A DNA stretch of 64,000 nt from an uncultured Candidatus Poseidoniales archaeon (GCA_902573015.1 CACGIE010000002.1:7660-71659); one strand, 5' to 3'; shown: positions 27,429 through 46,579, counted from the stretch's first letter. Made by a program: numbers and translations. The notes: generated from the sequence alone by a model not told the origin.

Positions 27429-30400
27429 TCATGCACTTGCGACAGGCTGCTCGCCCCCTTCTTCAGCATCCCACCATGGAGATTCCCCTAGGTCATCTAA
27501 TTCATCGTCACCGTCCCATCTACCTTCGAGCACGCGATCAGTCTCATTCTCGTCTATGAAGAGTAGGAAGAAGGTGGTGACGAGGGTCAGAGCAGCGCCT
27601 ATGTAGATTGCAGATGTGTAGTTGAAGACGGATATCATCCTCTCTGTCAGTGTGTATGCGAAAACGACCGAGGTATTCAGGATGGACATGTATGCTGTGA
27701 ACTGTGTGCCTCCTACCTTGCTCCATGTTAGCCTCATACACAGAGAAATAATGCAAATAAGAGCTATTCCAGCAACGAAGTACTGGCCAATCAGATATAT
27801 TGTCATGACCAAGGTGTTCCCCCACATGGGCTCCAGGAAAGCAAAGGTGGCATTCGCTAGGGCCAGTACCAAGAAGGAGACCATCGCTACTCTGCGAATC
27901 CCAAACTTGTCTCCGAGGATGCCGCCGATTATCTGCCCTGAAACTGAGCCGAGCAAGGCGATACCGCCGACTATGCCATTGTACTTCTGTTGGGACCAGC
28001 CTGCCTCATTGATGAAGATGTCAACGTAAATCGGGCTGGTGAAGTAATACAGCTCACCGAGTAGACCTGCTATAACCAGCAGGAAGGCGGACCTGACTGA
28101 GAAGGCCTTGGTCAGATAGAATGATGTTCTTGCTACTGTTTTACTGACAGACTCTGGATCGAAACGGCCGTTTCCGGGCATATAGTTGGATATTGCGCCA
28201 ATTGGAGCAAGAATCAGCAATATCGGGTTTGGTAAGGCATCCTCGGATTGTGGTGAAATGAGCCTTGATTTCCCCGTCGAAATGACCGAAAGAAGAATCA
28301 GCGCGAGGCTGATCCTATTCGTCCCAGACCACGGCCTGAGATCAAATCCGAGGATTTGTTTTGCCTCTAGGGCCGGGAATCCTATTCTGACGTTCTTACC
28401 GAAGCCCCAGTCTACCGTGAAGACATCCATCACGAAGCCGAATAGCCAGATACAGGCTCCAGAAACTGCGAGGAAGGAGGAGATTGATACTCGCTTGTTG
28501 GCAATACTGTAGCCGACTATTCTTGCTACTCGGAACTCTTCCTCTTCCTCCCATGGAGCCTCTTCTGAGTCATCCACCACCTCTGCGATCAATGCCCCTG
28601 AGTCTGTCCTTGATTTGGGCGAGTCTGTCACATCCGTAGTTCTTGACCATGGGAACAATTGGACGCCTGGTTTCTCAACCATGAGAAGTGGCACCATTAT
28701 GATGAATGCGAGCATCACTAATTGCGCGGCTATTACTCCAGAGATTCCTATCTTGGTAATTAACACCCCCAGGACCGCCCCTCCGAAGATGATTCCAACC
28801 CTCTTTGCGGCGAACATGAGGCCGTTCACCCTAGCTACCTCATCGGGCTCGAGGACCTCAACTGCGAGAGCATCGGTTGCCACATCCTGCAGGGACGAGA
28901 ATATATTGTGGACGAATAGGATTCGGGCAACTAGGTCAATCTGCCCGTTCAAGTCCGGAACCAGAAGCAAGGAGCCGAGGGTCAGTGCCATTCCAGTTTG
29001 GGCGAATACGATCCATTGCCTTCGGGGACCGTACTTCTCGATGTAAATGGAGTCAACCAGAGGCCCCCATATCCACTTGAAGGTCCATGGGAGGGAGACT
29101 GTTGCGAACAGAATCGCTATCTCGGGAACTGAAACCCCATTTGCCACGAGATATGCTGCAAAGGTTACGCTTGCGAAACCCTGTGGCAAACCTTGGGCGA
29201 AGTAGAGTAGGCAAAGGGTTAGTACTCTCTTAATGGGGTTCTCGGTTATCGCCCCTCCCTTGCCTAGCTCAGAGATGTTTTTCGACATCCTCTCAGACCA
29301 AGACAAGGTTTCCTCTGGCTCTAGAGAAGACGCTGAATCTTCGTGATTTTCGTCGCTTTCGGAAGTCGTGGTTTGGAGCCATTCTTCCCTCCTACCGACG
29401 AACAAAACTAGGGCTATTGCTAGTAGGAAGGGTACGAAGAAGGCTATTGGACCTAGGTTGGTCAATCCCGATGAAGACGATGAGCCAGAAAATTGGACAT
29501 CGAGCAGAATAACCCTCCTAGCGTCGACTGGAGAAATGCTATCATCCGAAACTACCAGCCTTGCATAAATCGTCGAGTTTCCGGATTTTTCATGAGGGTC
29601 TAATTTTATGCTCCAAGATGACCAGTCCCCGTCCTTGGATAGATCGGCGGCTCCCGACCAAAGGCCTCCGCCTATCTTAACCTCGACCAAGCCGGTGCCT
29701 GGGGCTGCTCCACTGGAGGTTCCGGTGACATAGCTCTCGTTCCCTATTTCTTGAAGTGTGGAGACTTCCATTGAGACATTCAGGGATCTATCTATGCTCC
29801 CAGCCGCCTCGACGAAGGCAGTTGGGTCTGCCTGGCCGAAACCGAACTCGTTGTCAGGACGAGTTTCTAGTACGCTGCAGTCGTTGAATCCGGGGTCATT
29901 CAAGAGTTGGATGTCTCTCTCGATAGAGTGAGCGGAGATGATGTCCTTGAACTCTGTCGGAGTCAAATCGGGGTTCGCTTGAACCATCAGTGCAGCGATT
30001 CCAGCCATAAGTGGCGTGGCCATGCTAGTTCCTGACTTGCTCGTGTACCCATCCTGAGTCGCTGCATCGGGAGCCATGATGCTGGAACCTATCGTAGCGA
30101 CATCCGGCTTGACTCGGAAGTCCGAGGTGTACCCTCGACTACTGTAAATCGCGAGACCTAGGTCCTTGTCTAGGCTGGCCACAGTGACTGGTAGCTCTGC
30201 GTCACCTGGGCTGTCGATTGTGTTACACCCAGCAAGGGTCGCTCCACCGAATTCGTTACCCGCCGAGAGAGTAGTAATGATTCCGGCCTCAACGACCATA
30301 TCCATCTGACGGCTCCACGCGGAACTCCCGTCATTGTCGATGTGAACCTCGAACTGCTGTTCTCCCAAGGAGGAGGTGACTATGTCGATACCGTACTTGT

Positions 30401-31355
30401 CCCTGTTGTCTATGGCCCACTGGGCACCTTGCATCACATCCTCGATATCGCCATCGCAACAACCTAGGATGTTGATCAGGTAGGCTCCGGGAGCTGCACC
30501 GACATATCGTAAACCGGTTCCAGGATCTGTCTGCCCACCACCGGAACCAGCGGCAATTCCTGCGACGTGGGTACCGTGGGTGCCCGAATCATATGACGTA
30601 GAAGGGTCTTGTTCTTCATCGGTGAAAACTGCATCAAAGAAAGCGATAATCTTCGGATCGCAGTCGGAGGGGATTGGCTGTGGCTCTGGGTCCAGAGGAT
30701 CTGGCTCGGGAGGGTCATCGATACAGGTAAAGGGATCATCGTCCATATCGTTAAGGCCCTCATGGTCGCCACGAACTCCTGTATCTAGGATTGCGATTAC
30801 AGATCCAGTTCCGTCTAGTCCGAAGTCATTCCAGACTGTGTCAACAGCCATGTTGGGGACGGCTTCATGCATGTTTGTCTCAGCCAGTCCAAGATCCTCA
30901 ATCATCACAACCCCACTGAGTGATCTGATCCCATTTTCATCCAATATTGAGGACACTGGTGAGGTGGCCGAGACAGTATTGAGGTATCCGAACCTGAAAG
31001 TAACTTCGACCCCTAGTGACTCTAAGGCAGAGATATCGGCATCAGTTGGGTGGTGGTCGTAGTCTACGAAGATCCTTGCATGTTCTTCCGGAGCCCTCCT
31101 CCACCAATCCCTCTTGACTTCCTCCGGTTGCTCAATTAGCCATTCTAGTCTGTCGTCAATGGAGTTGGAATCCTTGTCTCTGCTCCAATGTGTCCACCAT
31201 TTCCAATGTATGTCTGACTCCACTGATGGGGCCCACTTTCCTTCGGCATCAAAACCGCCGTTAGGTACTTCTTCTACCCAAATAGAGGAAGACGCCATGG
31301 GAGCTATTAGGACCAATAGAGCCAGGGGCAAGAACATCGAGCGGCGTCCGGCCAT
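27429..31355 (-). CDS. fusion protein: secreted subtilisin-like S8 protease (with propeptide) + single TM + AmpG/PAT-like MFS permease
   Basis: One uninterrupted 1308-codon frame. Signal peptide. S8 catalytic triad blocks AILDTGV (Asp), HGTHVAG (His), GTSMATP (Ser). Then a TM anchor (FFVPFLLAIALVLFV), an acidic linker, and a 12-14 TM MFS with LYFAQGLPQGF...PWTFKWIWGPLVD (AmpG-like). Confidence 0.85.
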   Translation of the reverse strand: MAGRRSMFLPLALLVLIAPMASSSIWVEEVPNGGFDAEGKWAPSVESDIHWKWWTHWSRDKDSNSIDDRLEWLIEQPEEVKRDWWRRAPEEHARIFVDYDHHPTDADISALESLGVEVTFRFGYLNTVSATSPVSSILDENGIRSLSGVVMIEDLGLAETNMHEAVPNMAVDTVWNDFGLDGTGSVIAILDTGVRGDHEGLNDMDDDPFTCIDDPPEPDPLDPEPQPIPSDCDPKIIAFFDAVFTDEEQDPSTSYDSGTHGTHVAGIAAGSGGGQTDPGTGLRYVGAAPGAYLINILGCCDGDIEDVMQGAQWAIDNRDKYGIDIVTSSLGEQQFEVHIDNDGSSAWSRQMDMVVEAGIITTLSAGNEFGGATLAGCNTIDSPGDAELPVTVASLDKDLGLAIYSSRGYTSDFRVKPDVATIGSSIMAPDAATQDGYTSKSGTSMATPLMAGIAALMVQANPDLTPTEFKDIISAHSIERDIQLLNDPGFNDCSVLETRPDNEFGFGQADPTAFVEAAGSIDRSLNVSMEVSTLQEIGNESYVTGTSSGAAPGTGLVEVKIGGGLWSGAADLSKDGDWSSWSIKLDPHEKSGNSTIYARLVVSDDSISPVDARRVILLDVQFSGSSSSSGLTNLGPIAFFVPFLLAIALVLFVGRREEWLQTTTSESDENHEDSASSLEPEETLSWSERMSKNISELGKGGAITENPIKRVLTLCLLYFAQGLPQGFASVTFAAYLVANGVSVPEIAILFATVSLPWTFKWIWGPLVDSIYIEKYGPRRQWIVFAQTGMALTLGSLLLVPDLNGQIDLVARILFVHNIFSSLQDVATDALAVEVLEPDEVARVNGLMFAAKRVGIIFGGAVLGVLITKIGISGVIAAQLVMLAFIIMVPLLMVEKPGVQLFPWSRTTDVTDSPKSRTDSGALIAEVVDDSEEAPWEEEEEFRVARIVGYSIANKRVSISSFLAVSGACIWLFGFVMDVFTVDWGFGKNVRIGFPALEAKQILGFDLRPWSGTNRISLALILLSVISTGKSRLISPQSEDALPNPILLILAPIGAISNYMPGNGRFDPESVSKTVARTSFYLTKAFSVRSAFLLVIAGLLGELYYFTSPIYVDIFINEAGWSQQKYNGIVGGIALLGSVSGQIIGGILGDKFGIRRVAMVSFLVLALANATFAFLEPMWGNTLVMTIYLIGQYFVAGIALICIISLCMRLTWSKVGGTQFTAYMSILNTSVVFAYTLTERMISVFNYTSAIYIGAALTLVTTFFLLFIDENETDRVLEGRWDGDDELDDLGESPWWDAEEGGEQPVASA

Positions 31356-31401
31356 AGTTCCGCGGACAAATGGTCATGTTTGAGATTTAGGACTACAATA
31401 T

Positions 31402-32301
31402 TCATCCAATAACCTGTACTCCTTGCTCGTCGAAGTCCCAATCCAGAATTTGCCAACCCTCGTCCTCGATGTACTGAGTGGCATATTCCTTGCCAGAAGG
31501 TGAGCAAAGCAAAGCTGAGCACCCCCCTCCCCCGGCCCCTAGCGCCTTCCAAGCTACGATCGATCCTGACTCAATCAGAGGCATGACGACAGCTCGAAAC
31601 GGATCGTGAATAGTGGGGTCGATCATATCGACTCCCTCGCAGACTCCCCTCAATGAAGAAACTACCAAATCTCTCCTATCCTGTTGCAAACCTTTTGCCA
31701 TCTCTCTCGCGGAACTCCTTATCTTGTGCAAACCTTGGATTACTCCCTCGTCCCCATTTGAGTAACTGGACCATACCGATTCCTGGATTTCCCCTGAATT
31801 CCTGCTGCTTCCTGAGTAAGCAATTACCAGGTGCTTCTTCAGCCAATTCAATGAGGACTTCATCGGCTCGAAAGGCATTCTCTCTACCGAGTCTCCAATA
31901 AACAGAAGGTGATTGAAGCCGCCAACTGCAGAGGCCCAATGATCTTGCCTTCCACAGCGATTCTCTTTTGACTCTGAAAGGAATGCCTGCTCGGCTATTT
32001 CATCGAGGTTCTCTAATTGGCTTGACGAAGTTAGCGCTGCCAGTGCAACATTCATCGCTGAACTGGTTCCCAGACCGGAACCACGAGGAACTGGGAAGTC
32101 GAATTCTAAATCAGAATCTTCCACTTCCTCACGTTTCCTTACCCTAACTCTATGATTTATTGCGAAATTTACTACCTCTCCACCAAAATCTGTAGGATAG
32201 GGGGGAACATCGGTCCATCCTCCCGCCAAATCCACCCTTAATGGGGCCGAAGATTCTGTGGAGCCGCTCATAGGACAATGCGAGGGGTTCGAAGACATCA
32301 C
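31402..32301 (-). CDS. GHMP-family sugar kinase (HddA/fucokinase-like)
   Basis: LRVDLAGGWTDVPPYPTDFGGEVVNFAI matches the xRIxFxGGGTDxxxYxxxxGGxVxNxAI N-terminal signature of COG2605 kinases. GHMP ATP motif PRGSGLGTSSAMNVA. Confidence 0.6.
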   Translation of the reverse strand: MMSSNPSHCPMSGSTESSAPLRVDLAGGWTDVPPYPTDFGGEVVNFAINHRVRVRKREEVEDSDLEFDFPVPRGSGLGTSSAMNVALAALTSSSQLENLDEIAEQAFLSESKENRCGRQDHWASAVGGFNHLLFIGDSVERMPFEPMKSSLNWLKKHLVIAYSGSSRNSGEIQESVWSSYSNGDEGVIQGLHKIRSSAREMAKGLQQDRRDLVVSSLRGVCEGVDMIDPTIHDPFRAVVMPLIESGSIVAWKALGAGGGGCSALLCSPSGKEYATQYIEDEGWQILDWDFDEQGVQVIG

Positions 32302-32330: not shown

Positions 32331-33062
32331 ATGGCCTCTCCGCGAGACATGGATGATGAGGTAGGGAGGGCGATATCTGCCTTCAAGTCTGGAAGACCCG
32401 TGATGATTTACGATTCAGACTATCGAGAGATGGAAACTGATCTGCTTTGGCATGCAGCAGCAGCGACACCAGAAGTGATTAGAAGGCTCAGAAACGACTG
32501 TGGTGGCCTCCTATTCCTTGCCATAGGTGATGAAATTGGAGAAATGTTCGGCCTTCCTTGGTTACAAGACATTCACTCTCACAAGTCTTTGGTGGAAGAG
32601 AATCCTGTTCTAGGACATCTAGTAACAAATGATCTCCAGTATGACTCAAGATCGGCGTTCACCCTTTCTCTTAACCATAGGGAGACGTTCACGGGAATTA
32701 CAGATAGAGACAGGTCCCTAACAACGAGAAGATTTGGAGAATTATCCGGAGAACTGATAGAAAAAGATGAAAATGGAGCTAGGGCGAAGGAAAGGCTTGG
32801 GAAGGAATTCAGAACTCCTGGCCATATCCCAGTATGCAGAGAGTCCCCTGGGGGTCTAAAGACGCGTCAGGGCCATACCGAACTTGCCGTTTCAATTGCG
32901 AGATTGGCGGGGTTGACAGCTTGTACGATAGGTGCGGAGATGCTAGAACCAGAGGGAGATGGCGCCTTGTCTTTGGAAGGTGCTAGGGCATACGCAAACA
33001 AGCACGGGATTCCAATGATTACCGGAGAGCAGGTTTCAGCAATTTTCAATGAAAAAGATTAG
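32331..33062 (+). CDS. ribB: 3,4-dihydroxy-2-butanone 4-phosphate synthase
   Basis: SGRPVMIYDSDYREMETDLLWHAAAATPEVI parallels the RibB VxVxDDEDRENEGDLxxAAExxT block. 243 aa. Confidence 0.8.
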   Translation: MASPRDMDDEVGRAISAFKSGRPVMIYDSDYREMETDLLWHAAAATPEVIRRLRNDCGGLLFLAIGDEIGEMFGLPWLQDIHSHKSLVEENPVLGHLVTNDLQYDSRSAFTLSLNHRETFTGITDRDRSLTTRRFGELSGELIEKDENGARAKERLGKEFRTPGHIPVCRESPGGLKTRQGHTELAVSIARLAGLTACTIGAEMLEPEGDGALSLEGARAYANKHGIPMITGEQVSAIFNEKD

Positions 33063-33084
33063 GCGAGGCATCTGAGGAGGCTGG

Positions 33085-33546
33085 ATGATGACTAGGGTGA
33101 TGGCAGTTGGGATCTTCGATCTGCTACATGCCGGCCATCTGCACTATGTTGAGCAAGCCAAATCACTTGGTGAGGAGCTAGTTGTTGTAATCGCGCATGA
33201 TGAAACAGTGAGAAAGCAGAAGCACGAGCCAGTGACAGGGCAGGACTTGAGAAGAAGGATGGTTGAAGGACTGAAACCAGTGGATCAGGCAATAATTGGT
33301 AACCCTCCCGGAGTTCCCATATTCGAGATTCTCGGACAGATAAGGCCAGATTTAATCGCACTGGGCTATGATCAGAAGCACTCTATCGATGCAATTAGGA
33401 AAGGATTGGATCAACATGGTTTCGAAGATGTAGAAGTGACACGTGTAGAAGGACTATCTGACGATCTAGACGGAACTAGGAAGATTATCGCAAGAATCCT
33501 TGACCTATGGCCAGGAACAGAGGGCGGACCTTACGAGGAAGATTGA
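33085..33546 (+). CDS. ribL: FAD synthetase, archaeal RibL-type nucleotidyltransferase
   Basis: 153 aa. VMAVGIFDLLHAGHLHYVEQA is the (H/T)xGH cytidylyltransferase-like motif characteristic of RibL. Confidence 0.75.
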   Translation: MMTRVMAVGIFDLLHAGHLHYVEQAKSLGEELVVVIAHDETVRKQKHEPVTGQDLRRRMVEGLKPVDQAIIGNPPGVPIFEILGQIRPDLIALGYDQKHSIDAIRKGLDQHGFEDVEVTRVEGLSDDLDGTRKIIARILDLWPGTEGGPYEED

Positions 33547-33548
33547 GA

Positions 33549-34151
33549 ATGTTTACCGGAATTGTTGCAGGAACTGCCCCCATAGTGGATATCGGTGGTG
33601 ATGATTCAGTACGTACATTTTCTGTGGATCTAAAGGGATTCGATAGTGATCTCGAAATAGGTGCAAGCGTATCATTGGACGGAGTTTGTATGACAGTGGT
33701 GAATTTAGATAACGGGATAGTCTCCTTTGATGCGATTTCTGAGACATTGGAAAGAACTACCCTTTCCAACAGCATGGTAGGGGACTTGCTAAATGTAGAA
33801 AGATCTCTACGCCTTGGAGATGAGTTGGGCGGCCACATCCTCTCTGGACACATTATTGGTACGGCAGAGATTCTGAAAAGAGAAGAGGTTGGGGACGGGG
33901 TTGATTTCCTGATCTCCATTCCAAATGGCTGTAACCAATTCATTCTAGAAAAGGGCTACATCGCAGTTGATGGCATGTCTCTGACAGTAGGAAAATGCGA
34001 CGAAGATTCTTTCTTCCTGCACATTATACCTGAGACGCTAAGGATAACGAGCATTGGAAATAAGTCTGAGGGAGATTTGGTGAATATAGAGATAGACTCC
34101 AGGACTCAGGCAGTGGTGGAGGCAATGATGAGGATGGGTGTTGAATCTTGA
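33549..34151 (+). CDS. ribE: riboflavin synthase, bacterial-type two-repeat alpha subunit
   Basis: Starts MFTGIVAGTAPIV (the canonical MFTGII/V N-terminus). Second repeat begins GHIISGHIIGTAEI. About 200 aa. Confidence 0.8.
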   Translation: MFTGIVAGTAPIVDIGGDDSVRTFSVDLKGFDSDLEIGASVSLDGVCMTVVNLDNGIVSFDAISETLERTTLSNSMVGDLLNVERSLRLGDELGGHILSGHIIGTAEILKREEVGDGVDFLISIPNGCNQFILEKGYIAVDGMSLTVGKCDEDSFFLHIIPETLRITSIGNKSEGDLVNIEIDSRTQAVVEAMMRMGVES

Positions 34152-34540
34152 ATCTGGGTATTGTCTGCGGATCTTTCCACAGGGAACAAGTTGAGAGGAT
34201 GCTGAAATTTGCTATTGATGAGGCTAGTTCGAAAAATTGGGAAGTTTCTGAAGTTGTATGGGTTCCCGGATCGATGGAAGCCCCCCTGGCAATAGATAGG
34301 ATGCTACAGAGTGCCGAAATACAAGGGGCAGTAGTGTTGGGAATTATCGAGAAAGGGCAGACCGATCACGGCCTAGTGATGGGGCAGTCGGTCACTAAGT
34401 CCGTGATTGAACTTCAAATCAAGCATAACAAGCCCATAGGTTTGGGAATCATAGGGCCGGGAGCGGAGCCTGAGCATATCGAGCCCAGACTTGAGCCGCA
34501 TGCCAGATCAGCGGTTGGCGCAGTAGCGGCAATGTCTTAG
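34148..34540 (+). CDS. ribH: 6,7-dimethyl-8-ribityllumazine synthase
   Basis: VVWVPGSMEAPLAIDRML (like VxVPGAFELP) and GAVVLGIIEKGQTDH (like DAVIALGxVIRGxTxH). 130 aa. Start overlaps the ribE stop. Confidence 0.7.
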   Translation: MNLGIVCGSFHREQVERMLKFAIDEASSKNWEVSEVVWVPGSMEAPLAIDRMLQSAEIQGAVVLGIIEKGQTDHGLVMGQSVTKSVIELQIKHNKPIGLGIIGPGAEPEHIEPRLEPHARSAVGAVAAMS

Positions 34541-35955: not shown

Positions 35956-37059
35956 ATGTCAGGCCACCTAAGTCCGGAGCAGAGGGATAGATATGCACGA
36001 CACCTGGTCCTTCCAGGGGTTGGTTCTGAGGGGCAGGAGAAATTGCTGAAATCATCAGTTCTTGTGATAGGAGCAGGGGGCCTTGGGTCTCCAGCATTGA
36101 TGTATTTGGCCGCTGCTGGAGTGGGCAGAATAGGGATTGTTGACAATGATAAAGTCAGTTCATCGAATTTGCAGAGACAGATAATTCACAGTACTTCTTC
36201 TATCGGAAGTGCGAAAGTTAAGTCCGCATCAAATTGGATTTCTGAGTTAAATCCAGATATAGAGATAGAAGAAATTGAAGAGAAGCTAACTAGTGAAAAT
36301 TCGATTCAGATTATTTCTAAATATGACGTAGTTATTGACGGTACAGACAATTTCGAGTCACGATATCTGATTGGTGACTCATGTGAGATTCTAGGTAAAC
36401 CGTGGATTTTTGGTAGTATTCACAGATTTGAGGGGCAGGTGTCATCATTCAATTTCAAGGACGGCCCCAACTATAGGGATTTGTTTCCATCACCTCCGCC
36501 GCCAGAATTAGCGCCTAATTGCTCGGAGGCGGGAGTTCTTGGAATTCTTCCCGGAATTGTCGGAACCATCCAAGCTACTGAGGCGATCAAGATCATTCTT
36601 GGCGTTGGAAACTGTCTGTCCGGAGAATTGCTAGTAATCGATGCCTTGACCATGGATTTCAGGAAACTTGAGTTTTCTTTGAACACCGAACGAGAGAAGG
36701 TAACTTCACTCTCAAAAAAGCAAGAGAAGGGGTTTTCTGAGATAGGTGCTAAGGAATTCTCCGAAAGGAGAAATGAGGGGTGGGCCCCATTCCTACTCGA
36801 TGTTAGAAGATCCGATGAAGAGCAAATTTCCTCTATTGGGGGCACTGATTCTAGAATAATGCATCTAGAAATACCTTCCAGATTGGAAGAGTTGCCCTCG
36901 CAGGGGGATATTGTGGTTTATTGCAGAAGTGGACAGAGGTCTGATGCCGTAGCCAGGTTCATTGTGAATTCCGGATTGTGCAATGGCATAATCTACAACC
37001 TATTAGGGGGGATTAATGCCTGGTCGGACGAGGTAGATCCTACTGTTGTTAAATATTAA
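35956..37059 (+). CDS. moeB: MoeB/ThiF-type adenylyltransferase with C-terminal rhodanese domain
   Basis: LSPEQRDRYARHLVLPGVGSEGQEKL...VIGAGGLGSP is the E1-like nucleotide-binding fold. The C-terminal roughly 100 aa contains the rhodanese active-site Cys (IVVYCRSGQRS). Confidence 0.85.
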   Translation: MSGHLSPEQRDRYARHLVLPGVGSEGQEKLLKSSVLVIGAGGLGSPALMYLAAAGVGRIGIVDNDKVSSSNLQRQIIHSTSSIGSAKVKSASNWISELNPDIEIEEIEEKLTSENSIQIISKYDVVIDGTDNFESRYLIGDSCEILGKPWIFGSIHRFEGQVSSFNFKDGPNYRDLFPSPPPPELAPNCSEAGVLGILPGIVGTIQATEAIKIILGVGNCLSGELLVIDALTMDFRKLEFSLNTEREKVTSLSKKQEKGFSEIGAKEFSERRNEGWAPFLLDVRRSDEEQISSIGGTDSRIMHLEIPSRLEELPSQGDIVVYCRSGQRSDAVARFIVNSGLCNGIIYNLLGGINAWSDEVDPTVVKY

Positions 37060-37232
37060 TGTGGTATATATTATCACAATATGTCTTTTTATTGTGGTAA
37101 TTAATCATAAATATGGTTTAATTTTTTATTTTTTCAATATATGTGGTAAATATAAACTTAATATATCTTTTAATTGTGGTAAAAGTTCTACTCATAATTG
37201 TTTAATACCACATAATATAACTAATTGTGGTA
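37059..37232. repeat. AT-rich (about 20% GC) intergenic array of TGTGGTA(A) iteron-like repeats
   Basis: Direct copies of the core TGTGGTA at 37060, 37093, 37142, 37175 and 37225, plus an inverted copy TACCACA at 37205. Spacings alternate 33 and 49-50 bp, giving a pair period of about 82 bp. The last pair forms TACCACA-N13-TGTGGTA. Confidence 0.7.
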
Positions 37233-37289
37233 AAATGTGAAAATCTTGGCCAATATTGTTGTACTAGGCTCATTCGTGATTCAAACAAT

Positions 37290-40154
37290 ATGGCGAGAGT
37301 TGGAATTTGGAAGTGTCCAGAATGCCAACTTCACCAAACCTGGAAGACTAGGTCAGATAAGTCAAACAAATTGGATCGTAAGTGTACAGGATGTGGGAAA
37401 AGGGTTCGAACGACCCTAGATAGGTCTGTCTCAGGGAAGGGCAGAGTGCGGAACGTCGAAATTTGGGAAAGGAGTTCTAAGGATTGGGAATCTCTGGAAG
37501 AAGAGGTTCAGAGAAGGAATAGGGGGTCTTTTGCAGATCCCATCGCATCAGTTAGTGGGAATGAAAATGAGGAACTGCAGTCTAATATTCCAAAAATTTG
37601 GGGCGTAGGGTGGATTCCTCCGGATGCATTGATTTTTCCATCAAAGCTGAAGTCAAAAAGAGCCAAGAAGAGTTTGCTAGAATTTGTAGCAGAAAGACAC
37701 GATGGTCATCTAAATTCTATTTCAGAATGTTGGGATTCAATGAAATGTAAAGATAAAATGACGGGTGAAGAGTTTCATGAATTCTCTCAGGAATTGATGA
37801 GAGTAATCGAGGAAAGATACCTAGAAAGGACGTTGGGTCCCGATCTATCTGGGCTTGCAAAATCAGAAATCATACCGATGAGAAGGGGTGAAGTATTCCT
37901 AAAGAGGAGATTGGACAGGCTACTAATTGATCTGACACTTTGCATGAGAAGAATTGCACATTATGCTTCGATTACTGTGGAAAATAGAATAGAATGGCAG
38001 AGGAGAATGATTCGTACAAGATTAGTGGATGAGGAGTTGAAGGACCTCTTTACGAATGGATTGCCTACCCCAGATGGAGGTAGTTTTGGTGGAAAGGGTT
38101 TCAGATCAACCTGGCAGGAAGGGGTGGTTGCCTGCGCTACTGCTATGACACGCGCAGTTGATTTGCCGGAAGAAAACCGTCACAATGCAGACATTGTAGC
38201 CCCAATGATCAGAGATATGGGCCTAGCACTTGCAATGGGGCAGACCCCGATCGAGGTTTTTTCTGCCCAAATGGGCAAGGCAGAGTCCTACATGGACGGT
38301 GGAATTCAAGGAAGTGGCGGTAGGGATTTGCATATAGGGAACTGGGAGAAGGGAATCCTGCCTCCTACTGCACCATTGCCTATTGCAAGTGCAACAACCA
38401 CTGGAGTAGCACTGGCTGCAAGTAGGCTAGGAATTAGTAGATTCCACTTAGCCCCTGTGGGAGAGGGTTGTAGCAGTAGCGGAGAGTTCTGGGAGGCGAT
38501 GAATTTCGCTGGAGTTCGTGGTTTGCCGATTTGCTTCATGATTCAGAATAATCAGATAGCACTTGATACACTAAATTCTGCTCAATCAGGAGCAGAGACT
38601 TTCGGTGACAAGGGGCATGCAATGGGAATCCCCGCCTGGACTATAGATGGATCTGATCCAGCGTTATTCTATGTATCCACTGCGGTTGCTAAGGAGTTCG
38701 CCAAGGATGGATGCGGAGCAACGCTAATCCACGTGGAAACAATGAGGGGTTGTGGGCACGCTCATCATCATGATGATTTGTACCTTGGAGCATCAAGCGG
38801 AAACCCTCCAGGTTATGTTGATCGGGAGTTACTGCGATACTGGTCCGAGAAAGATCCTCTGCCAAACCATAGAGAGTTATTGATTAAACTCGGAGTGGGC
38901 GAACAAAAACTCAACCGCATTCAGCTGGAAGAAGAAGGCAATGTGGAGTCAGCCAGGAGTCAATTGGAAAAAATGGAGTGGCCGGAGGGGAATTCGGTTG
39001 TCAAAGGAGTTACATCAATCTCGGACGCTACAAGTCACGAGAAGCAACTACGGAGAATTGACGAGGCAGGGGATATTACGAGTACCGGTCTAGGTTCAGG
39101 GGAGCTCTCAATAGAGTTCTCCGATGCTCCAAATTCTTGGAGTTACAGTAGAGCAATTCAGAATGGCATGGCAGCACTTGCAGACCAATTCGGCGATCAG
39201 ATGGTGTTCATGGGCGAAGATATGGAAGTAGCAGGGGCATTCGGAATGAATCTAGGGCTCAAGGCTAAGGGTCATCAATCAAAACTTCTCGATATGCCAC
39301 TATCTGAGGCCATCATAATCCATTCAGCGACAGGCGCAGCCCTAGGAGGGATGAGGCCACTGGCAGAGATACAGTTCGGAGGATTTGCAGCACTAGCAAT
39401 GAACCCCCTGGTCAACAATGCGGCTCAATTGAGATGGAGATGGGGCGCAGAGGTACCGATGACAGTACGAATTCCCCTAGGAGCTAAGACCAGGAGTGGG
39501 CCATTTCACGCTAACATGATTGAATCATGGCTAACAAACGATCCAGGATTGATCATTGTAACTCCAAGTAATCCTCAGGATGCTTATGATCTGCTTATTG
39601 AGTCACACCATCTACCAGATCCTGTTGTCTACTTAGAGCATATTGGGCTGTACGGACTTAGAGGGGGCATAACTGGCTGGGGTAAATCAATCAATCAAAT
39701 AGTGGATACAGAGGCTGTAATGAATAGACTAGGAAATGGAGATAGTTCAATTGGCAGAGCCAGAGTAGTCAGAGGAGGCGAGGATCTCACAATTGTCACC
39801 TGGGGTGCCATGGTACACGTTGCGCTTGATGCAGCAGAGAATGTGTCGAATAGGGGGGTTGAAGTCGAAGTTGTGGATCTGAGAACTCTCGTTCCCTTTG
39901 ACTCTGGGACATGTATCAACTCGGTTCTCAAGACTGGAAGACTAATCGTTCTACAAGAGTCGCAGTGGACTGGTGGTTTTGGCCATACAGTCTCGAGCAG
40001 AATTATCGAAGAGTCGTTCTGGAAGTTAGAAACTCCTCCCGTAGTGATTGGAGCGTTGGATACACCTGTTCCTTTCTCTCCAACACTTGAGGACCATACT
40101 ATTCCAAGTGTCGAAGTGGTTTCCAGGCATATCGAAAGAGCATGTGCAAAATGA
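37290..40154 (+). CDS. fused 2-oxoacid dehydrogenase E1 component (alpha+beta, TPP-dependent) with an unusual N-terminal C4 zinc-ribbon extension
   Basis: Frame is open from GTG 37226, with the first ATG at 37290 (MARVGIWKCPECQ...CTGCGKR). After about 230 aa comes E1-alpha (TPP motif GEGCSSSGEFWEAMNFA). Then E1-beta (transketolase-like Pyr and C-terminal domains) runs to 40154. Confidence 0.85.
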   Translation: MARVGIWKCPECQLHQTWKTRSDKSNKLDRKCTGCGKRVRTTLDRSVSGKGRVRNVEIWERSSKDWESLEEEVQRRNRGSFADPIASVSGNENEELQSNIPKIWGVGWIPPDALIFPSKLKSKRAKKSLLEFVAERHDGHLNSISECWDSMKCKDKMTGEEFHEFSQELMRVIEERYLERTLGPDLSGLAKSEIIPMRRGEVFLKRRLDRLLIDLTLCMRRIAHYASITVENRIEWQRRMIRTRLVDEELKDLFTNGLPTPDGGSFGGKGFRSTWQEGVVACATAMTRAVDLPEENRHNADIVAPMIRDMGLALAMGQTPIEVFSAQMGKAESYMDGGIQGSGGRDLHIGNWEKGILPPTAPLPIASATTTGVALAASRLGISRFHLAPVGEGCSSSGEFWEAMNFAGVRGLPICFMIQNNQIALDTLNSAQSGAETFGDKGHAMGIPAWTIDGSDPALFYVSTAVAKEFAKDGCGATLIHVETMRGCGHAHHHDDLYLGASSGNPPGYVDRELLRYWSEKDPLPNHRELLIKLGVGEQKLNRIQLEEEGNVESARSQLEKMEWPEGNSVVKGVTSISDATSHEKQLRRIDEAGDITSTGLGSGELSIEFSDAPNSWSYSRAIQNGMAALADQFGDQMVFMGEDMEVAGAFGMNLGLKAKGHQSKLLDMPLSEAIIIHSATGAALGGMRPLAEIQFGGFAALAMNPLVNNAAQLRWRWGAEVPMTVRIPLGAKTRSGPFHANMIESWLTNDPGLIIVTPSNPQDAYDLLIESHHLPDPVVYLEHIGLYGLRGGITGWGKSINQIVDTEAVMNRLGNGDSSIGRARVVRGGEDLTIVTWGAMVHVALDAAENVSNRGVEVEVVDLRTLVPFDSGTCINSVLKTGRLIVLQESQWTGGFGHTVSSRIIEESFWKLETPPVVIGALDTPVPFSPTLEDHTIPSVEVVSRHIERACAK

Positions 40155-40209: not shown

Positions 40210-41169
40210 ATGGATGAGACTGTGGTGGACGTAGTTTTCGTCCTTATCGGGTTTGCTTTGCTAATGTTCGGGGGAGAGGCTCTGGTTCAAGGAGCTACTA
40301 GGATATCCCAGAGTCTCAGCATATCGCCTCTAGTAGTGGGATTCACAGTCGTAGCAATCGGAACATCACTGCCCGAACTGGCTGTTGCGATTGAGGCTAT
40401 TGAAACTGACGTACCAAATATTGCAGTTGGAGGGGTCCTAGGTTCTAATGTCGCAAACGTGATGTTGGTCTTGGGAGCGGCAGCCGTCTTAGGGGCTAAA
40501 TCTGATACAGAGAAAGGGGTAAACAGGGATGCGATGGCAGTAGTGGTAGCCACTCTGTTCATGGCAATATTCGTTTATTTTGGAGAAGTTCCCCTTCTAG
40601 GAGGCGTCGTGATGTTGACATGTCTGATTGGTTACTACTACTACACCTACTCAGTTGCAATCTCGGATGAAGATGAGTATGAGTTCGAAGACTCATGGCT
40701 ACCAAACAAAATGTCCCTTGCTATCCCCTTCTGTGTTATGGGTGGTGGGATGATATGGTTTGGTGCTGAATTACTTGTATCTGGATCAACTGGTATTGCT
40801 GAGACTTTCGGAGTCTCGGAGGCCGTTATTGGTCTGACGGTGGTAGCACTGGGGACTTCATTGCCCGAACTGGCTGTTACACTAGTAGCTGGCATTAGAG
40901 GGCAAGGAGGCGTTGCCGTAGGAAACGTACTAGGTTCCAATGTGATGAACATCATGGGGATAATTGGTATAGCGAGTATTGTTGGGAGTGGGATTCCTGT
41001 AGATGTAGAGTTTCAGAGAGACATCATAGTGGTGATAGCAACATCGGGATTAGTAGTATGGATGCTCATATCTGGAAAGGAGTTCACCAAAAATATTGGA
41101 ACTATGATGATCATATCTTACCTATTCTACATGACATATCTCGGTGGTTTCCTAGACGGATTATTTTAG
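40210..41169 (+). CDS. Ca2+/cation antiporter (CaCA family, YrbG-like)
   Basis: Two alpha-repeat signatures: GTSLPELAVAIEA and GTSLPELAVTLVAG. About 10 TM helices with an acidic central loop. Confidence 0.85.
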   Translation: MDETVVDVVFVLIGFALLMFGGEALVQGATRISQSLSISPLVVGFTVVAIGTSLPELAVAIEAIETDVPNIAVGGVLGSNVANVMLVLGAAAVLGAKSDTEKGVNRDAMAVVVATLFMAIFVYFGEVPLLGGVVMLTCLIGYYYYTYSVAISDEDEYEFEDSWLPNKMSLAIPFCVMGGGMIWFGAELLVSGSTGIAETFGVSEAVIGLTVVALGTSLPELAVTLVAGIRGQGGVAVGNVLGSNVMNIMGIIGIASIVGSGIPVDVEFQRDIIVVIATSGLVVWMLISGKEFTKNIGTMMIISYLFYMTYLGGFLDGLF

Positions 41170-43171: not shown

Positions 43172-44032
43172 TTGGCACCCCGACGGACCTTTGTGACTGT
43201 GGCAGTCCTAAACTGGGCCATCAATAGAGTAGAGGCTGGAGAAAGAGTCGCCATTGCATCTGTGGTTCAGGCCAGCGGGAGCGTTCCTGGGAAACCAGGA
43301 GCAAGGCTAGCAATCAGCTCCTCGGGGGAAAAGTTCGGGACTATCGGTGGTGCAGGATTGGAGTTAACGGTGGAAAAGGAGCTTCAAGAAATTCTTTTGC
43401 GAGATCTGTCTGACCTAAGAAAAAAAGGAGGTAAAGTTGAGTTATTCCTGCTAAACAGAGATGGCAAAGGAAAAGAGGTATCTGCCCTCGACAGTCTATG
43501 CGGGGGACGGGTGACAGTAGCTATGGAAGTGATTACTCCACGACCTCACATCTTGATTGCGGGAGGGGGGCACGTTGGTCTTTCAATCGCAAAGGTGTGT
43601 GATTCTGTGGAATGGTCGTATAGCGTATTCGATATAAGAGAGGAGTATTGTAACCAACAGCGTTATCCAAACGCTGAGAGGAATTTCTGCTCGTCTGTCG
43701 AGGAATTTCTCAAGAGCGAAAGTAAGGATTCTCTGGCTCGTTTTTCAGATATTCTACTGTTGAGTCATGATTGGTCGGTTGATGAAGAGATGCTAATCGG
43801 GTTACTGCAATTATGCAGAGAAGGAAGTAGGCCTCGGATTGGGGCTATAGGATCGAAGAAGAAATGGTCTGCTTTCAGGAAGAAGGCTATTGGAAGTGGG
43901 GTTGAGGAGCGGCTGATAGACTCCGTCAGATGCCCTATTGGCCTAGACATAGGGGCGGATACTCCGGAAGAAATTGCAATTGCGGTTTGTGCAGAAGTTC
44001 TATCTCTTGAAAGGAAGAACGTGGCTACCTAA
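43172..44032 (+). CDS. XdhC/CoxI-family molybdoenzyme maturation factor
   Basis: N-terminal XdhC_CoxI-like block VAIASVVQASGSVPGKPGARLAI...GTIGGAGLE. C-terminal Rossmann-like ILIAGGGHVGLSIAKV. Confidence 0.7.
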   Translation: MAPRRTFVTVAVLNWAINRVEAGERVAIASVVQASGSVPGKPGARLAISSSGEKFGTIGGAGLELTVEKELQEILLRDLSDLRKKGGKVELFLLNRDGKGKEVSALDSLCGGRVTVAMEVITPRPHILIAGGGHVGLSIAKVCDSVEWSYSVFDIREEYCNQQRYPNAERNFCSSVEEFLKSESKDSLARFSDILLLSHDWSVDEEMLIGLLQLCREGSRPRIGAIGSKKKWSAFRKKAIGSGVEERLIDSVRCPIGLDIGADTPEEIAIAVCAEVLSLERKNVAT

Positions 44033-44063
44033 GTATCAAATTAGGTGTTAAATTCGGGAAGTC

Positions 44064-45278
44064 ATGAAGGTTCTGTCGACCCTGACTTCCATACTGGTAA
44101 TTTCTGCAAGCTTAGTCGGATGTATGGGAGAGAGTGAGGAGAAGGAAGATATCCCCGTAGTAGACGGCTATTTCGGAGCTTTCAGTGTCGTAGCCCCAAT
44201 CGATACTGGGATTAACGTATATCATAATCACTTCTCTATGAACGAGTCTTACCCGCAGTGGCTGCTTGATCAACTGGGAGTAAACAAGGTTTGTGAAATT
44301 AGTAAAAACGGAACTTGGGAAGAGCGCTACGAAGCGGATAGGGAAGATTGCTGGGACGTGATTGGTTCCGACGACATTGTATGGTTCAAGGGTTCGAGAA
44401 TAATTGGCACTACTCCCGATGATAATACGGACATACCAATCCTCGACGACCCTAATGACGGGCATGGGACCGCAGTAACTGGTGCGGTAATTGACGCGAA
44501 CCCGGACGCGGTGATTTTCTTCGTCGAGGGATTCAGTGATGCGGCTGTTCTGGCTGCTGCGAACCAACCTTTGGTGGATTTGATTACAACTAGCTTCGGA
44601 CCCATACTTTCGGTTCCGGTCCCTGGCATTGAGGATGCAACCAAAGTCGCAGTTGTTGAAGAAAAGAAGATTCACACTGGAGCTGCGGATAACTCCCCTT
44701 CTCCTGCCATTCAAGACTCAACGGCTGGACCTCCGTGGAGTATTGGAGTTTCGGGATATGCTGAAGAGGATGACGATCAGAAAGAGACCATGAGCGGTTC
44801 TTACCCCGACATAGCTGCAGACTGGACTCAAATGCTCCCCAACCATGACGACATTGACGGATATCATCAGACCTCGGGAACCTCGTTTGCAACACCAAGG
44901 ACCGCTGGATTGCTCTCCAAAGTGCTAGTCTCTCTAAGAACGGAATTCGGGGATTTTTCCTCCGGTGCCGATCCTGTAGATAGGATGGGGCTAATGGTGA
45001 ACGGATCGAATTTCACACTCACCAACGATGACATCAGAGATGCTTTGAACCTCTCAGCATGGTATCCATCATTTTCCAGTTGGGACCCTCTTTCGGGAAC
45101 AACTCCAATTTCGCCTGTGGCGCCGTGCACACAAGTGGGATGGGGAGTAGTGAACGAAAGCAATGTCCTTCCTATCATTGAGCACCTGAATGGGAGTAGC
45201 TCGATGAGCCAGAGGCCCTTCGATGTGGAACTCTGTATGGAGTCCAATCAGGAGATTAGAGAAGCATATTGGAACTAG
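44064..45278 (+). CDS. subtilisin-like S8 serine protease lipoprotein
   Basis: Lipobox SLVGC. Catalytic Asp (APIDTGINVYH), His (DGHGTAVTGAV) and Ser (TSGTSFATPR) blocks. Confidence 0.8.
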   Translation: MKVLSTLTSILVISASLVGCMGESEEKEDIPVVDGYFGAFSVVAPIDTGINVYHNHFSMNESYPQWLLDQLGVNKVCEISKNGTWEERYEADREDCWDVIGSDDIVWFKGSRIIGTTPDDNTDIPILDDPNDGHGTAVTGAVIDANPDAVIFFVEGFSDAAVLAAANQPLVDLITTSFGPILSVPVPGIEDATKVAVVEEKKIHTGAADNSPSPAIQDSTAGPPWSIGVSGYAEEDDDQKETMSGSYPDIAADWTQMLPNHDDIDGYHQTSGTSFATPRTAGLLSKVLVSLRTEFGDFSSGADPVDRMGLMVNGSNFTLTNDDIRDALNLSAWYPSFSSWDPLSGTTPISPVAPCTQVGWGVVNESNVLPIIEHLNGSSSMSQRPFDVELCMESNQEIREAYWN

Positions 45279-45314
45279 GGTGTTCTCTAAATAACAAGAA
45301 GAGAGTCCAAGATT

Positions 45315-45959
45315 ATGAGGAAGGTACTCCTTAGATGGAAGGTTTCCTCTCTTTCCGGAATAGATGAGATCGACAAACTGATGGAGATTTGTCACAGGAT
45401 AGAGGTTCTTGGACACCTTTCTACTGATTCTGGAGGGGTTACCCAACTGGTAGAATTGGGGATTAACAAAGGACGGTATCTATCTGAAATCTCGGATTTG
45501 GAGAGTTTTGATGTTATTGAAACACATGAAGAGGACGGGAGCGGCGTGTTGGTTAGCATTCGTTGCACTCATCCTCTAGCACTTTCTGCGTTAGAGTTGT
45601 CGAATATCTATGTCTACCCCCCATACGGAATCGATTCCAAGAGCGGCCTGGAGTTCAGAATCTTTGGGATTTCAAGATCCATACGGAGTTTCTTGGAGTT
45701 TGTTAGAGAAGTGATGCCACCGGACACAATTAGTGTACAGACAATAAAAAACGGATCTTCTAAGGAGCTCGATTTCCTGACAGAAAAGCAGAGAGAAGTG
45801 CTTGAACTGGCTGTGAACAGAGGTTACTACGAAGATGGAGCGGAGATAACATTGAAGCAACTCGCTGAAGAGCTAGGAATAGCAAGAAGCACCACAGGAG
45901 AGCATCTGAAGAGGGCCGAGTCTGAAGTTCTAAAAAGAGCCATCAATGATTTCCAATAG
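45315..45959 (+). CDS. HTH_10 (bacterio-opsin activator-type) transcriptional regulator
   Basis: C-terminal LTEKQREVLELAVNRGYYEDGAEITLKQLAEELGIARSTTGEHLKRAESEVL is the archaeal HTH_10 signature. Located immediately upstream of the molybdoenzyme operon. Confidence 0.7.
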   Translation: MRKVLLRWKVSSLSGIDEIDKLMEICHRIEVLGHLSTDSGGVTQLVELGINKGRYLSEISDLESFDVIETHEEDGSGVLVSIRCTHPLALSALELSNIYVYPPYGIDSKSGLEFRIFGISRSIRSFLEFVREVMPPDTISVQTIKNGSSKELDFLTEKQREVLELAVNRGYYEDGAEITLKQLAEELGIARSTTGEHLKRAESEVLKRAINDFQ

Positions 45960-45987
45960 ACATCAAGGGGAACCGAATGCTCAAAGG

Positions 45988-46578
45988 ATGGGCTCGATTG
46001 GTCGTAATGTGGTGCAGTTCCGGCTACCTATGCTACCCCCTTCCGATGCGATTGAGTGGAACGCCAAGGTAAATGACGAAGAAGTATCCATATTTATTGA
46101 GAGCAATGCGATTCTTCTTGACGTGCTTAGGGACCGTGTCGGGAGTCTGGGAACCAAGCGTGGATGCGATATGGGCACCTGTGGATGCTGTTCTGTACTA
46201 ATTGACGGGGAGCCGAGGTTGTCTTGTCTTACTCTAGCTGTAGATACTGAACAAGCCGATATCACAACAGTAGAAGGATTAGCTGATGGACACCATCTGC
46301 ACCCGATACAGCAGACCTTCGCGGAGTGTGGAGGCAGTCAATGCGGATTCTGCACCCCTGGTTTCTTGGTGGTAATTTCTGCATTACTATCTGAAAATAC
46401 CAAACCTGACGACCAAGAGATAAAACAAGCAATAGAGGGCAACCTATGTCGTTGTACTGGATTCCAGCAGATAGTTGACTCAGTCAAAGCCGCTTCAGAT
46501 ATCCTAGTCTCGGGGGAAGCGGTTAGCGACTCGACCCTATCAAAGAGTGATCCTCATCCAGGATTTGGTGGAGATTAG
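45988..46578 (+). CDS. xanthine dehydrogenase-family [2Fe-2S] small subunit (CoxS/XdhA-like)
   Basis: GCDMGTCGCCSVLIDGEPRLSC (plant-type 2Fe-2S). CGFCTPGF...CRCTGF (second 2Fe-2S). Confidence 0.85.
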   Translation: MGSIGRNVVQFRLPMLPPSDAIEWNAKVNDEEVSIFIESNAILLDVLRDRVGSLGTKRGCDMGTCGCCSVLIDGEPRLSCLTLAVDTEQADITTVEGLADGHHLHPIQQTFAECGGSQCGFCTPGFLVVISALLSENTKPDDQEIKQAIEGNLCRCTGFQQIVDSVKAASDILVSGEAVSDSTLSKSDPHPGFGGD

Positions 46579-46579
46579 T

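Follow-up and report, generated by a model that had tools for sequence, protein, structure and literature searches.

A fused E1 enzyme of Poseidoniales with a lineage-specific zinc ribbon, encoded behind an array of repeated boxes: a candidate trigger enzyme?

Why should a metabolic enzyme begin with a zinc ribbon, and why should its gene stand directly behind an array of short repeated boxes? These questions are raised by a locus in a stretch of 64,000 nucleotides (hereafter ‘the window’, meaning the whole stretch analysed) from an uncultured Candidatus Poseidoniales archaeon (GCA_902573015.1 CACGIE010000002.1:7660-71659), where a fused E1 alpha/beta enzyme, dependent on thiamine pyrophosphate (TPP) and of the 2-oxoacid dehydrogenase type, is encoded on the plus strand. 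In the surface ocean, few archaea are as abundant as Poseidoniales, which are uncultured; to our knowledge, almost nothing is known of their gene regulation. The answer that we favour, with somewhat less than even confidence, is that the protein is a second E1, which would borrow the E2 and E3 components of a canonical complex encoded elsewhere in the genome, and which would regulate its own gene, in the manner of the bacterial enzyme PutA, through the binding of its ribbon to the boxes.

The gene lies in a single open reading frame (ORF) without internal stop, which extends from 37227 to 40154 on the plus strand (and not from 37226, as given in a preliminary description of this DNA). A TAA stop is found at 37218-37220, followed by GTG 37227, and the frame is indeed open into the array, as that description had held. 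The GTG, proposed there as a candidate start, turns out to be the GTG of the proximal box aatTGTGGTAAaat, a box of the TGTGGTAA type. When 52 orthologous loci are compared, an ATG is found 6-10 codons ahead of the first cysteine as the nearest one upstream, and the open frame beyond that ATG is variable, from 3 to 50 codons. In the window, this upstream extension (37227-37289, plus strand) is open and non-coding, being conserved as DNA motifs and not as codons or protein. From the conserved distance of the ATG, the variable frame upstream of it and the conservation at the DNA level only, ATG 37290, rather than GTG 37227, is predicted to be the true start. The coding sequence (37290-40154, plus strand) would then comprise 954 amino acids and a stop codon, and it is from this ATG that residues are counted below; orthologues of about 955 amino acids can be aligned to it from end to end. 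The supplement of a Red Sea mdRNA-Seq study lists no transcription start for the E1 gene.

Three Pfam domains were detected in one chain, alpha first and then beta: E1_dh (residues 298-559, 118.8 bits for a gathering cut-off of 22), Transket_pyr (residues 618-786, 68.0 bits for a cut-off of 27) and Transketolase_C (residues 822-942, 115.9 bits for a cut-off of 25.9). These scores, all far above gathering thresholds, identify an E1 of the 2-oxoacid dehydrogenase type with alpha and beta in a single chain, and the fusion recognized in the preliminary description is thereby borne out. The TPP-binding alpha part (residues 236-600; 37995-39089, plus strand) has its relatives in the Protein Data Bank (PDB) among the E1 alpha subunits of Geobacillus and Thermus (1w85_A and 1um9_A, E approx. 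3e-23), and the beta part (residues 601-954; 39090-40151, plus strand), composed of Transket_pyr and Transketolase_C, among the E1 beta subunits of Pyrobaculum and Geobacillus (1ik6_A and 1w85_B, E approx. 1e-51). The TPP/Mg motif GEG-x26-NN (residues 391-421; 38460-38552, plus strand), aligned to the GDG...NN of 1w85_A, is invariant in 16 orthologues, as are the motifs GHAHHHDD, DMPLSEA and FHANMIES. The catalytic histidine of the alpha loop is found in a GCGH aligned with the GPH of 1w85_A, and the histidine of the beta ‘H-S-Q-S’ loop and the TPP-activating beta glutamate are also present, the beta residues having been equated by motif reading. The three E1 domains, the TPP motif and the catalytic histidine motifs are intact and invariant across orthologues. 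Moreover, the protein recurs with its N-terminal extension in dozens of species, at 66-97% identity, a recurrence which indicates that this feature is not due to chance.

To which selection are its parts subjected? Ratios of non-synonymous to synonymous substitutions (dN/dS) were computed with L013, L014 and L015, the full-length orthologues closest to the window protein (92-95% identical); orthologues at or below approximately 86% identity are saturated at synonymous sites (dS of -1 for L020 and for the group at 79%) and were not used, and L021 (97%), aligned over the N-terminus only, stands outside this set. The E1 core (residues 236-954) exhibits a dN/dS of 0.04-0.09. As for the extension, described previously as some 230 extra residues, it is real, yet it consists of two things, namely a ribbon module (residues 1-96) and a helical region (residues 97-235) that runs into E1 alpha.

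The first of these begins with a basic zinc ribbon (residues 1-62; 37290-37475, plus strand), the four cysteines of which (C9, C12, C32 and C35) form the motif CPEC-x19-CTGC, with a spacer of 19 residues where 17 had been counted before. All four are kept in the 14 aligned full N-termini and in the 50 ribbon-bearing loci with unambiguous sequence, and about 20 other N-terminal positions are invariant, for an N-terminal identity of 44-77%. In AlphaFold2 models (one from the N-terminal alignment, with a mean predicted local distance difference test score, pLDDT, of 75; one of residues 1-96 with 36 homologues, mean pLDDT 78), five short strands bearing the four cysteines are predicted over residues 4-61, this block being modelled at a pLDDT of 76-91. 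The dN/dS of the ribbon is only 0.05-0.18, with substitutions mostly at third codon positions; it follows that the ribbon is translated, as the preliminary description had assumed, and constrained nearly as strongly as the catalytic core, which points to a genuine coding sequence under purifying selection. With 16 lysines and arginines for six aspartates and glutamates (net charge +10, isoelectric point 10.4), among them a GKGRVR tract, the ribbon looks like a candidate nucleic-acid binder, as far as sequence and model can indicate; the RGRP-type tract of its stand-alone homologues (see below) and its weak structural neighbours, the zinc ribbons of ribosomal eS27 and of MCM, point in this direction too.

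The ribbon is followed by a helix (residues 66-80, EEExxRRN) and an acidic linker, which together make up residues 63-96 (37476-37577, plus strand) and display a dN/dS of 0.6-1.8; the linker is predicted to be disordered over residues 83-103, with a pLDDT below 50 for residues 83-96. The helical region proper (37578-37994, plus strand) shows a dN/dS of 0.14-0.25 and predicted helices at residues 122-136, 141-150, 159-181 and 200-227. At its end, EWQRRMIRTRLVDEEL at residue 235 is aligned with residue 48 of the E1 alpha of Geobacillus stearothermophilus (1w85_A), and the last helix of the extension is therefore already canonical E1 alpha. Profile searches of the extension, as suggested in the preliminary description, retrieved no Pfam family for either part. 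The helical region has no match in Pfam or the PDB; residues 1-240 retrieved only SUMO (E 1.1, phmmer) among PDB sequences; and the ribbon stayed below threshold in Pfam, NCBIfam and PHROGs (best E-values 0.058, to DUF4379, 0.15 and 0.02, respectively). Across profile, sequence and fold searches, no significant match of the ribbon to any characterized DNA-binding domain was obtained.

Is this extension conserved, or specific to one lineage? A scan of one genome per species of the Genome Taxonomy Database (GTDB) retrieved at least 502 relatives, the best 80 of which all belong to Poseidoniales; the source names of the homologues assign the window to Candidatus Poseidoniales/Thalassarchaeaceae, that is to the marine group II archaea. 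The N-terminus could be scored at 75 loci, of which about 52 carry the ribbon (long form) and 23 do not (short form). Short forms are 867-870 amino acids long, begin with M-x-Q-x-E-L-P-x-I-W-G exactly at residue 97 of the window protein, with a stop codon a few codons upstream, and include Poseidoniaceae (marine group IIa, MGIIa) and several Thalassarchaeaceae. In a midpoint-rooted neighbour-joining tree of the catalytic part, which is a rough tree, the proteins with a ribbon group in a single clade, which is nested among short forms, and a single gain of the ribbon is the simplest reading. The fused E1 family is, on these data, confined to Poseidoniales, the helical N-terminal region being found in every member, whereas the ribbon-helix-linker module of 96 residues appears as an extra acquired in one sub-clade of Thalassarchaeaceae. 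Three proteins in which the ribbon or the helical region is joined to unrelated sequence were also encountered (P0150, 215 amino acids, with an endonuclease-like tail; P0155, 181 amino acids, with an unknown tail; and P0160, 422 amino acids, with the C-terminus of a major facilitator superfamily (MFS) transporter); these are probably frameshifts or assembly chimeras and not true architectures.

The second half of the question concerns the DNA ahead of the gene. An AT-rich array of TGTGGTA-type boxes (37059-37268, plus strand) separates the ThiF/rhodanese gene from the E1 gene, and includes repeated candidate operators: five TGTGGTA boxes starting near 37060, 37093, 37142, 37175 and 37226, a TTGTTGTAC variant at 37258 and one inverted copy at 37205-37213. 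The spacing of the boxes (approx. 33, 49, 33, 51 and 32 nt) corresponds to three box pairs with a period of 82 nt. TGTGGTAA itself occurs four times in the 64 kb, always between 37093 and 37233. This design is kept in orthologous loci and the consensus of the boxes drifts (TAGTGGTTAA, ATATGGTAA, TTTGTGGT), with TGTGGTAA, TAGTGGTTAA or TATGGTAT as the box according to the genus; beside the promoter, the inverted pair ACCACA-N14-TGTGGT is conserved. The best-conserved upstream element, CAATATTGTTGTACTA (37251-37266, plus strand; -39 to -24 from the ATG), has invariant columns in 18 loci and is probably a core promoter made of a transcription factor B recognition element and a TATA-type box. A sigma-70 promoter and terminator scan, which is not applicable to an archaeon, was uninformative.

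In its distribution, the array is closely tied to the ribbon. Within the 250 nt before the ATG, RTGGTWW boxes number 3.3 on average in the 52 long-form loci versus 0.39 in the 23 short-form loci, for a background rate of about 0.3 per 250 nt, and clusters of at least four boxes were found, in 1.42 Mb of Poseidoniales sequence, only at the position upstream of E1. Ribbon and array are accordingly co-present in 52 loci, and 23 loci lack both.

Where might the ribbon come from? When the N-terminal profile was run exhaustively with HMMER over 1.84 billion representative proteins, it retrieved 117 matches only, comprising fragments of the fused-E1 family and about 20 free-standing proteins of 80-180 amino acids, which match profile positions 5-90 with E-values down to 1e-13; this search located the helical region nowhere outside the fused-E1 family of Poseidoniales. 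The free-standing proteins share with the ribbon the CxxC...CxxC cysteine pairs, D29, R38, R40, R45, G51 and the helix motif E72-x3-R76-N77, have a basic tract of the RGRP type and an ERPSYMP motif in addition, and match no family in Pfam, NCBIfam or PHROGs. They are encoded on contigs of 4.6-4.8 kb (L006-L012; for instance L007:1-4769, L010:1-4621 and L011:1-4711), the ends of which overlap by the k-mer of the assembler (141, 127, 55 or 30 nt), and between samples the gene order is circularly permuted; these contigs therefore represent circles of approximately 4.59-4.66 kb. Their GC content ranges from 36% to 60%. Besides a Dam and sometimes a C5 DNA methylase, they encode six conserved ORFs (approx. 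110, 141, 233, 50-57, 141 and 127-177 amino acids) without any Pfam or PHROGs match, the Dam methylase being the only one of the other circle proteins matched by PHROGs. The circles constitute an uncharacterized family of plasmids or viruses.

In the viral sequence space, a Foldseek search of BFVD with the ribbon-plus-helix model retrieved two predicted viral proteins of 134 and 124 amino acids, A0A345N471 (E 3e-5) and A0A345N4I4 (E 2e-4), with TM values of 0.69-0.73 and a probability of 1.00. Searches of 50,697 phage records by tblastn with the ribbon and P0169 gave no significant match, scans of IMG/VR with P0214 and P0169 gave no match, and no counterpart of these two proteins was found in either collection. 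Short repeats were also seen upstream of the ribbon gene on two circles: AATAGTGGGGT twice, 36 nt apart, with TTGTGTACT at L010:1604-1650, and CATGGTA twice, ATTGTGG and AATTGTTG at L007:1871-1958. They recall the boxes of marine group II (MGII), in too few instances to be told from chance.

If the fused protein is an E1, with which partners would it work? No E2, E3 or lipoyl domain was detected in the window when AceF and Lpd of E. coli and a lipoyl protein of Thermus served as tblastn queries, a result with which the Pfam domains of the neighbouring genes agree and which upholds the statement that neither partner is encoded within these 64 kb. Applied to 85 related Poseidoniales loci, the same searches yielded weak Lpd matches only (E 3e-6 to 9e-4), which coincide, at the loci checked, with the thioredoxin reductase gene; in about 80 species, tblastn found no E2 or E3 within 10 kb of the E1 gene. 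However, the term ‘orphan’ used in the preliminary description holds locally and not genome-wide, at least in one metagenome-assembled genome (MAG) of marine group IIb (MGIIb). Indeed, SIMO Bin 19-2, a MAG of the Thalassarchaeaceae/MGIIb genus O1, encodes in its genes 137-142 lipB, a dihydrolipoyl dehydrogenase (lpdA, E3), an E2 (K09699), E1b, E1a and lipA, and on another contig a gene 1141 annotated ‘dehydrogenase, E1 component’ (COG1071 and COG0022, K11381), the next gene being that of a Na/Ca antiporter (Damashek et al. 2021, PMC9723583, supplementary file 4). Gene 1141 is the orthologue of the window E1 gene, and its presence in the same MAG as the canonical cluster makes the fused protein a second E1 in that genome. 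In the same file, the best eggNOG matches are MG2_0836-0839 and MG2_0557, proteins of the genome that serves as the eggNOG reference for MG-II (taxon 274854); this genome, too, therefore seems to have both the canonical cluster and the fused E1.

The mechanism that we tentatively prefer combines these elements. The fused chain would dimerize into the equivalent of an alpha2beta2 E1, and the dimer would decarboxylate a 2-oxoacid and pass the acyl group to the lipoyl-E2 and E3 of the canonical lipA-E1a-E1b-E2-E3-lipB cluster encoded elsewhere in the genome. The two ribbons of the dimer would bind the direct and inverted TGTGGTA boxes that flank and overlap the core promoter, and the E1 could thereby adjust its own transcription as a trigger enzyme of the PutA type. 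A related proposal, possible yet doubtful, is that a small circular mobile element was the source from which the E1 captured its ribbon as a DNA-binding module, and that the E1 regulates its promoter via the phased TGTGGTAA array according to its catalytic or cofactor state.

Several observations weigh against the self-regulating second E1, and some of them feed the rival explanations. Concerning the array, ribbon and boxes arose together once, in one clade; their co-occurrence therefore counts as one evolutionary event and not as 52, and may be plain co-inheritance. The analogy with PutA drawn in the preliminary description is sustained by a basic and lineage-specific ribbon, by the co-occurring array and by the existence of ribbon-less forms, and is weakened by this single origin. 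In addition, one ribbon-bearing locus, that of Ca. Thalassarchaeum betae (L042:9700-10010), has no RTGGTWW box in the 250 nt before its ATG, and is either an exception to the rule or a case of strongly drifted boxes. A related element, CCGWATNNTTTGTATG, stands at the same distance from the ATG as CAATATTGTTGTACTA in ribbon-less short-form loci; a copy of CAATATTGTTGTACTA with two mismatches, GAATATTGTAGTCCTA (31388-31403 of the window, minus strand), lies 33-48 nt upstream of a gene of 1308 amino acids (27429-31355, minus strand, start at 31355) and may represent a promoter or regulatory motif common to both genes; and the upstream units of the array (cAGTATAnCGtTTtAATTGTGGTAA) resemble CAATATTGTTGTACTA as well. 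From these three points, the array may be an amplified promoter or a set of sites for a separate factor. Concerning the ribbon, modules of this type can also contact other proteins or RNA, and a Foldseek search of the PDB with both AlphaFold2 models retrieved generic zinc-ribbon neighbours only (eS27, the aRF1 insert and MCM, with E-values of at least 0.26). Concerning the enzyme, every NCBIfam equivalog scored far below its cut-off, the best being a pyruvate dehydrogenase (PDH) E1 beta subfamily (193 bits for a cut-off of 321), with PDH E1 alpha at 132 bits for a cut-off of 411, and the use of canonical E2 and E3 by the window protein leans on a MAG of a different genus. With scores so far under the curated cut-offs, the substrate class (PDH, branched-chain 2-oxoacid dehydrogenase or BCKDH, acetoin) cannot be assigned.

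The main alternative, which we consider somewhat less likely than the preferred mechanism, takes the ribbon as a protein-protein or assembly module, docking the extra E1 for example to the E2 core or to another partner, and the array as an unrelated feature, made of tandem core promoters or of operators for another factor. It would account for the proximal element shared by ribbon-less loci and echoed by the upstream units, for the similar 16-mer ahead of another gene and for the weak, generic outcome of fold searches with what is a common type of interaction module; moreover, N-terminal segments are generally known to recruit E1 to E2 in the homodimeric E1p and E1o of E. coli. Yet the enzyme does without the ribbon in 23 species, so that assembly as such does not require it, the extreme positive charge of the ribbon and its relatives on small mobile elements fit nucleic-acid binding better, and box clusters are unique to the E1 promoter.

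A second alternative, orthogonal to the role of the ribbon, already raised in the preliminary description and unlikely in our view, is that the protein acts without any E2, as a TPP-dependent decarboxylase, a carboligase or an oxidoreductase of the acetoin:acceptor type. The lack of E2 and E3 genes within 10 kb in some 80 species, the distance to every PDH and BCKDH cut-off, the strong divergence of the alpha part (85 bits to the PDB) and the presence, among the best plasmid homologues, of genes annotated acoA (32% identity) would all be expected from such an enzyme. It is harder to reconcile with the invariance of both histidine motifs for the reductive acylation of lipoyl groups, with an intact C-terminal beta domain and with the E2, E3, LipA and LipB encoded elsewhere in MGII genomes.

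Far less probable is a post-transcriptional role, in which the ribbon would bind RNA, be it the leader of its own gene or a different transcript. The closest structural neighbours of the ribbon (eS27 and the aRF1 insert) are indeed ribbons that contact RNA, and its basic tract would be compatible with such binding; however, Rfam detected no family and no obvious structured leader was seen over 36900-37500, the leader predicted from the promoter is short, and what is conserved upstream consists of short, repeated boxes, as is typical of DNA sites. Finally, the reading of the extension as an untranslated artefact, which might have been prompted by the gene callers that shortened some orthologues to 889-902 amino acids, is ruled out by the dN/dS of 0.05-0.18 over codons 1-62, in line with the four cysteines and some 20 further positions kept invariant, the conserved position of the ATG and the confidently modelled fold.

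As to the surroundings of the gene, the next one downstream encodes a Na_Ca_ex antiporter (40210-41169), in keeping with the Ca/cation antiporter announced in the preliminary description. Pfam searches of ten neighbouring ORFs identified a thioredoxin reductase (TrxR), the ThiF-rhodanese protein, the Na/Ca exchanger, a MobA-like protein, ArsP_2, XdhC and a subtilase. The order TrxR - ThiF/rhodanese - E1 - MobA-like is common to long and short forms, and the exchanger was detected next to E1 at every long-form locus examined and, among the 23 short-form loci, at 12. Between ThiF and E1, short-form loci display 1-3 kb of other genes, and long-form loci an AT-rich spacer of 100-260 nt. In three ribbon-less loci (L090:7272-9919, L069:7875-9908 and L067 upstream of 10001), this gap holds a gene for a long acidic protein, the N-terminal part of which resembles, when read by eye, the receiver of a response regulator, followed by a gene for an MFS or other membrane protein; these gap genes are absent from ribbon-bearing loci.

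The neighbourhood is also rich in genes related to cofactors, with riboflavin genes upstream (approx. 32331-34540) and, downstream of E1, a MobA-like nucleotidyltransferase and XdhC (43172-50349 of the window), beyond which synteny with L001 and L004 would place the set for a molybdoenzyme of the xanthine-dehydrogenase type (Fer2, MoCoBD and FAD_binding_5). On the Thermus thermophilus plasmid pAA2-2b (L094:5998-8185), which carries the best plasmid homologues, E1 alpha and beta are split genes, followed by a free-standing biotin/lipoyl protein of 82 amino acids and a tripartite ATP-independent periplasmic (TRAP) transporter, with no full E2, an unusual and minimal arrangement.

If the ribbon does bind the array, Poseidoniales would possess a compact pair of regulator and operator, of which the ribbon-bearing and ribbon-less orthologues offer a natural experiment; and if the enzyme is indeed a trigger enzyme, this kind of regulator would have its first example in an E1, and its first based on a zinc ribbon. 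In any case, the presence of two E1s for one set of E2 and E3 in MGII genomes bears on which 2-oxoacids, derived from peptides or sugars, are oxidized by these archaea, and the ribbon defines a protein family that links a chromosomal enzyme with circular elements of about 4.6 kb. E1 proteins with fused alpha and beta parts are already known (K11381). The N-terminal region specific to Poseidoniales, the zinc-ribbon module with its family and the coupling of ribbon and array appear undescribed in the libraries and literature searched.

How does this locus compare with known systems? The fused proteins gathered under K11381 (bkdA, ‘dehydrogenase E1 component subunit alpha/beta’) have the same domain order in one chain as the window E1, and a fused homologue is found on a plasmid of Fuscovulum; the bacterial examples are only about 30% identical to the window protein, which adds to them the helical N-terminus specific to Poseidoniales and, in one clade, the zinc ribbon. 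The canonical 2-oxoacid dehydrogenase complex of archaea is reportedly encoded in Thermoplasma acidophilum by a four-gene operon, E1a-E1b-E2-E3, and the corresponding MGII operon is flanked by lipA and lipB. The same E1 chemistry would be expected from the window protein, the gene of which is however a separate, fused paralogue at another locus, without E2 or E3 nearby. A precedent for the sharing of E2 is offered by human DHTKD1, which is reported to use DLST and DLD; both are a second E1 encoded away from the genes of the complex and presumed to borrow its E2 and E3, with the differences that DHTKD1 is a homodimeric enzyme of the E1o type and that for the window E1 the sharing is only presumed. 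The free-standing proteins of the circles differ from the E1 ribbon in being independent of any enzyme, in their RGRP tract and ERPSYMP motif, and in being encoded beside DNA methylase genes.

The closest parallel for the proposed regulation is found in trigger enzymes of the PutA type, which are said to carry an N-terminal ribbon-helix-helix DNA-binding domain and to recognize several operators in their own control region. The N-terminal domain of PutA occurs in some bacteria only. In both cases, a small basic N-terminal domain is borne by a large enzyme (a catabolic one in PutA) and is present in some lineages only, and the repeated upstream sites of the window E1 are found only where the ribbon is present. 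Unlike PutA, however, the window protein would use a C4 zinc ribbon rather than a ribbon-helix-helix for a DNA binding that is putative, in an archaeal host and on an E1 enzyme.

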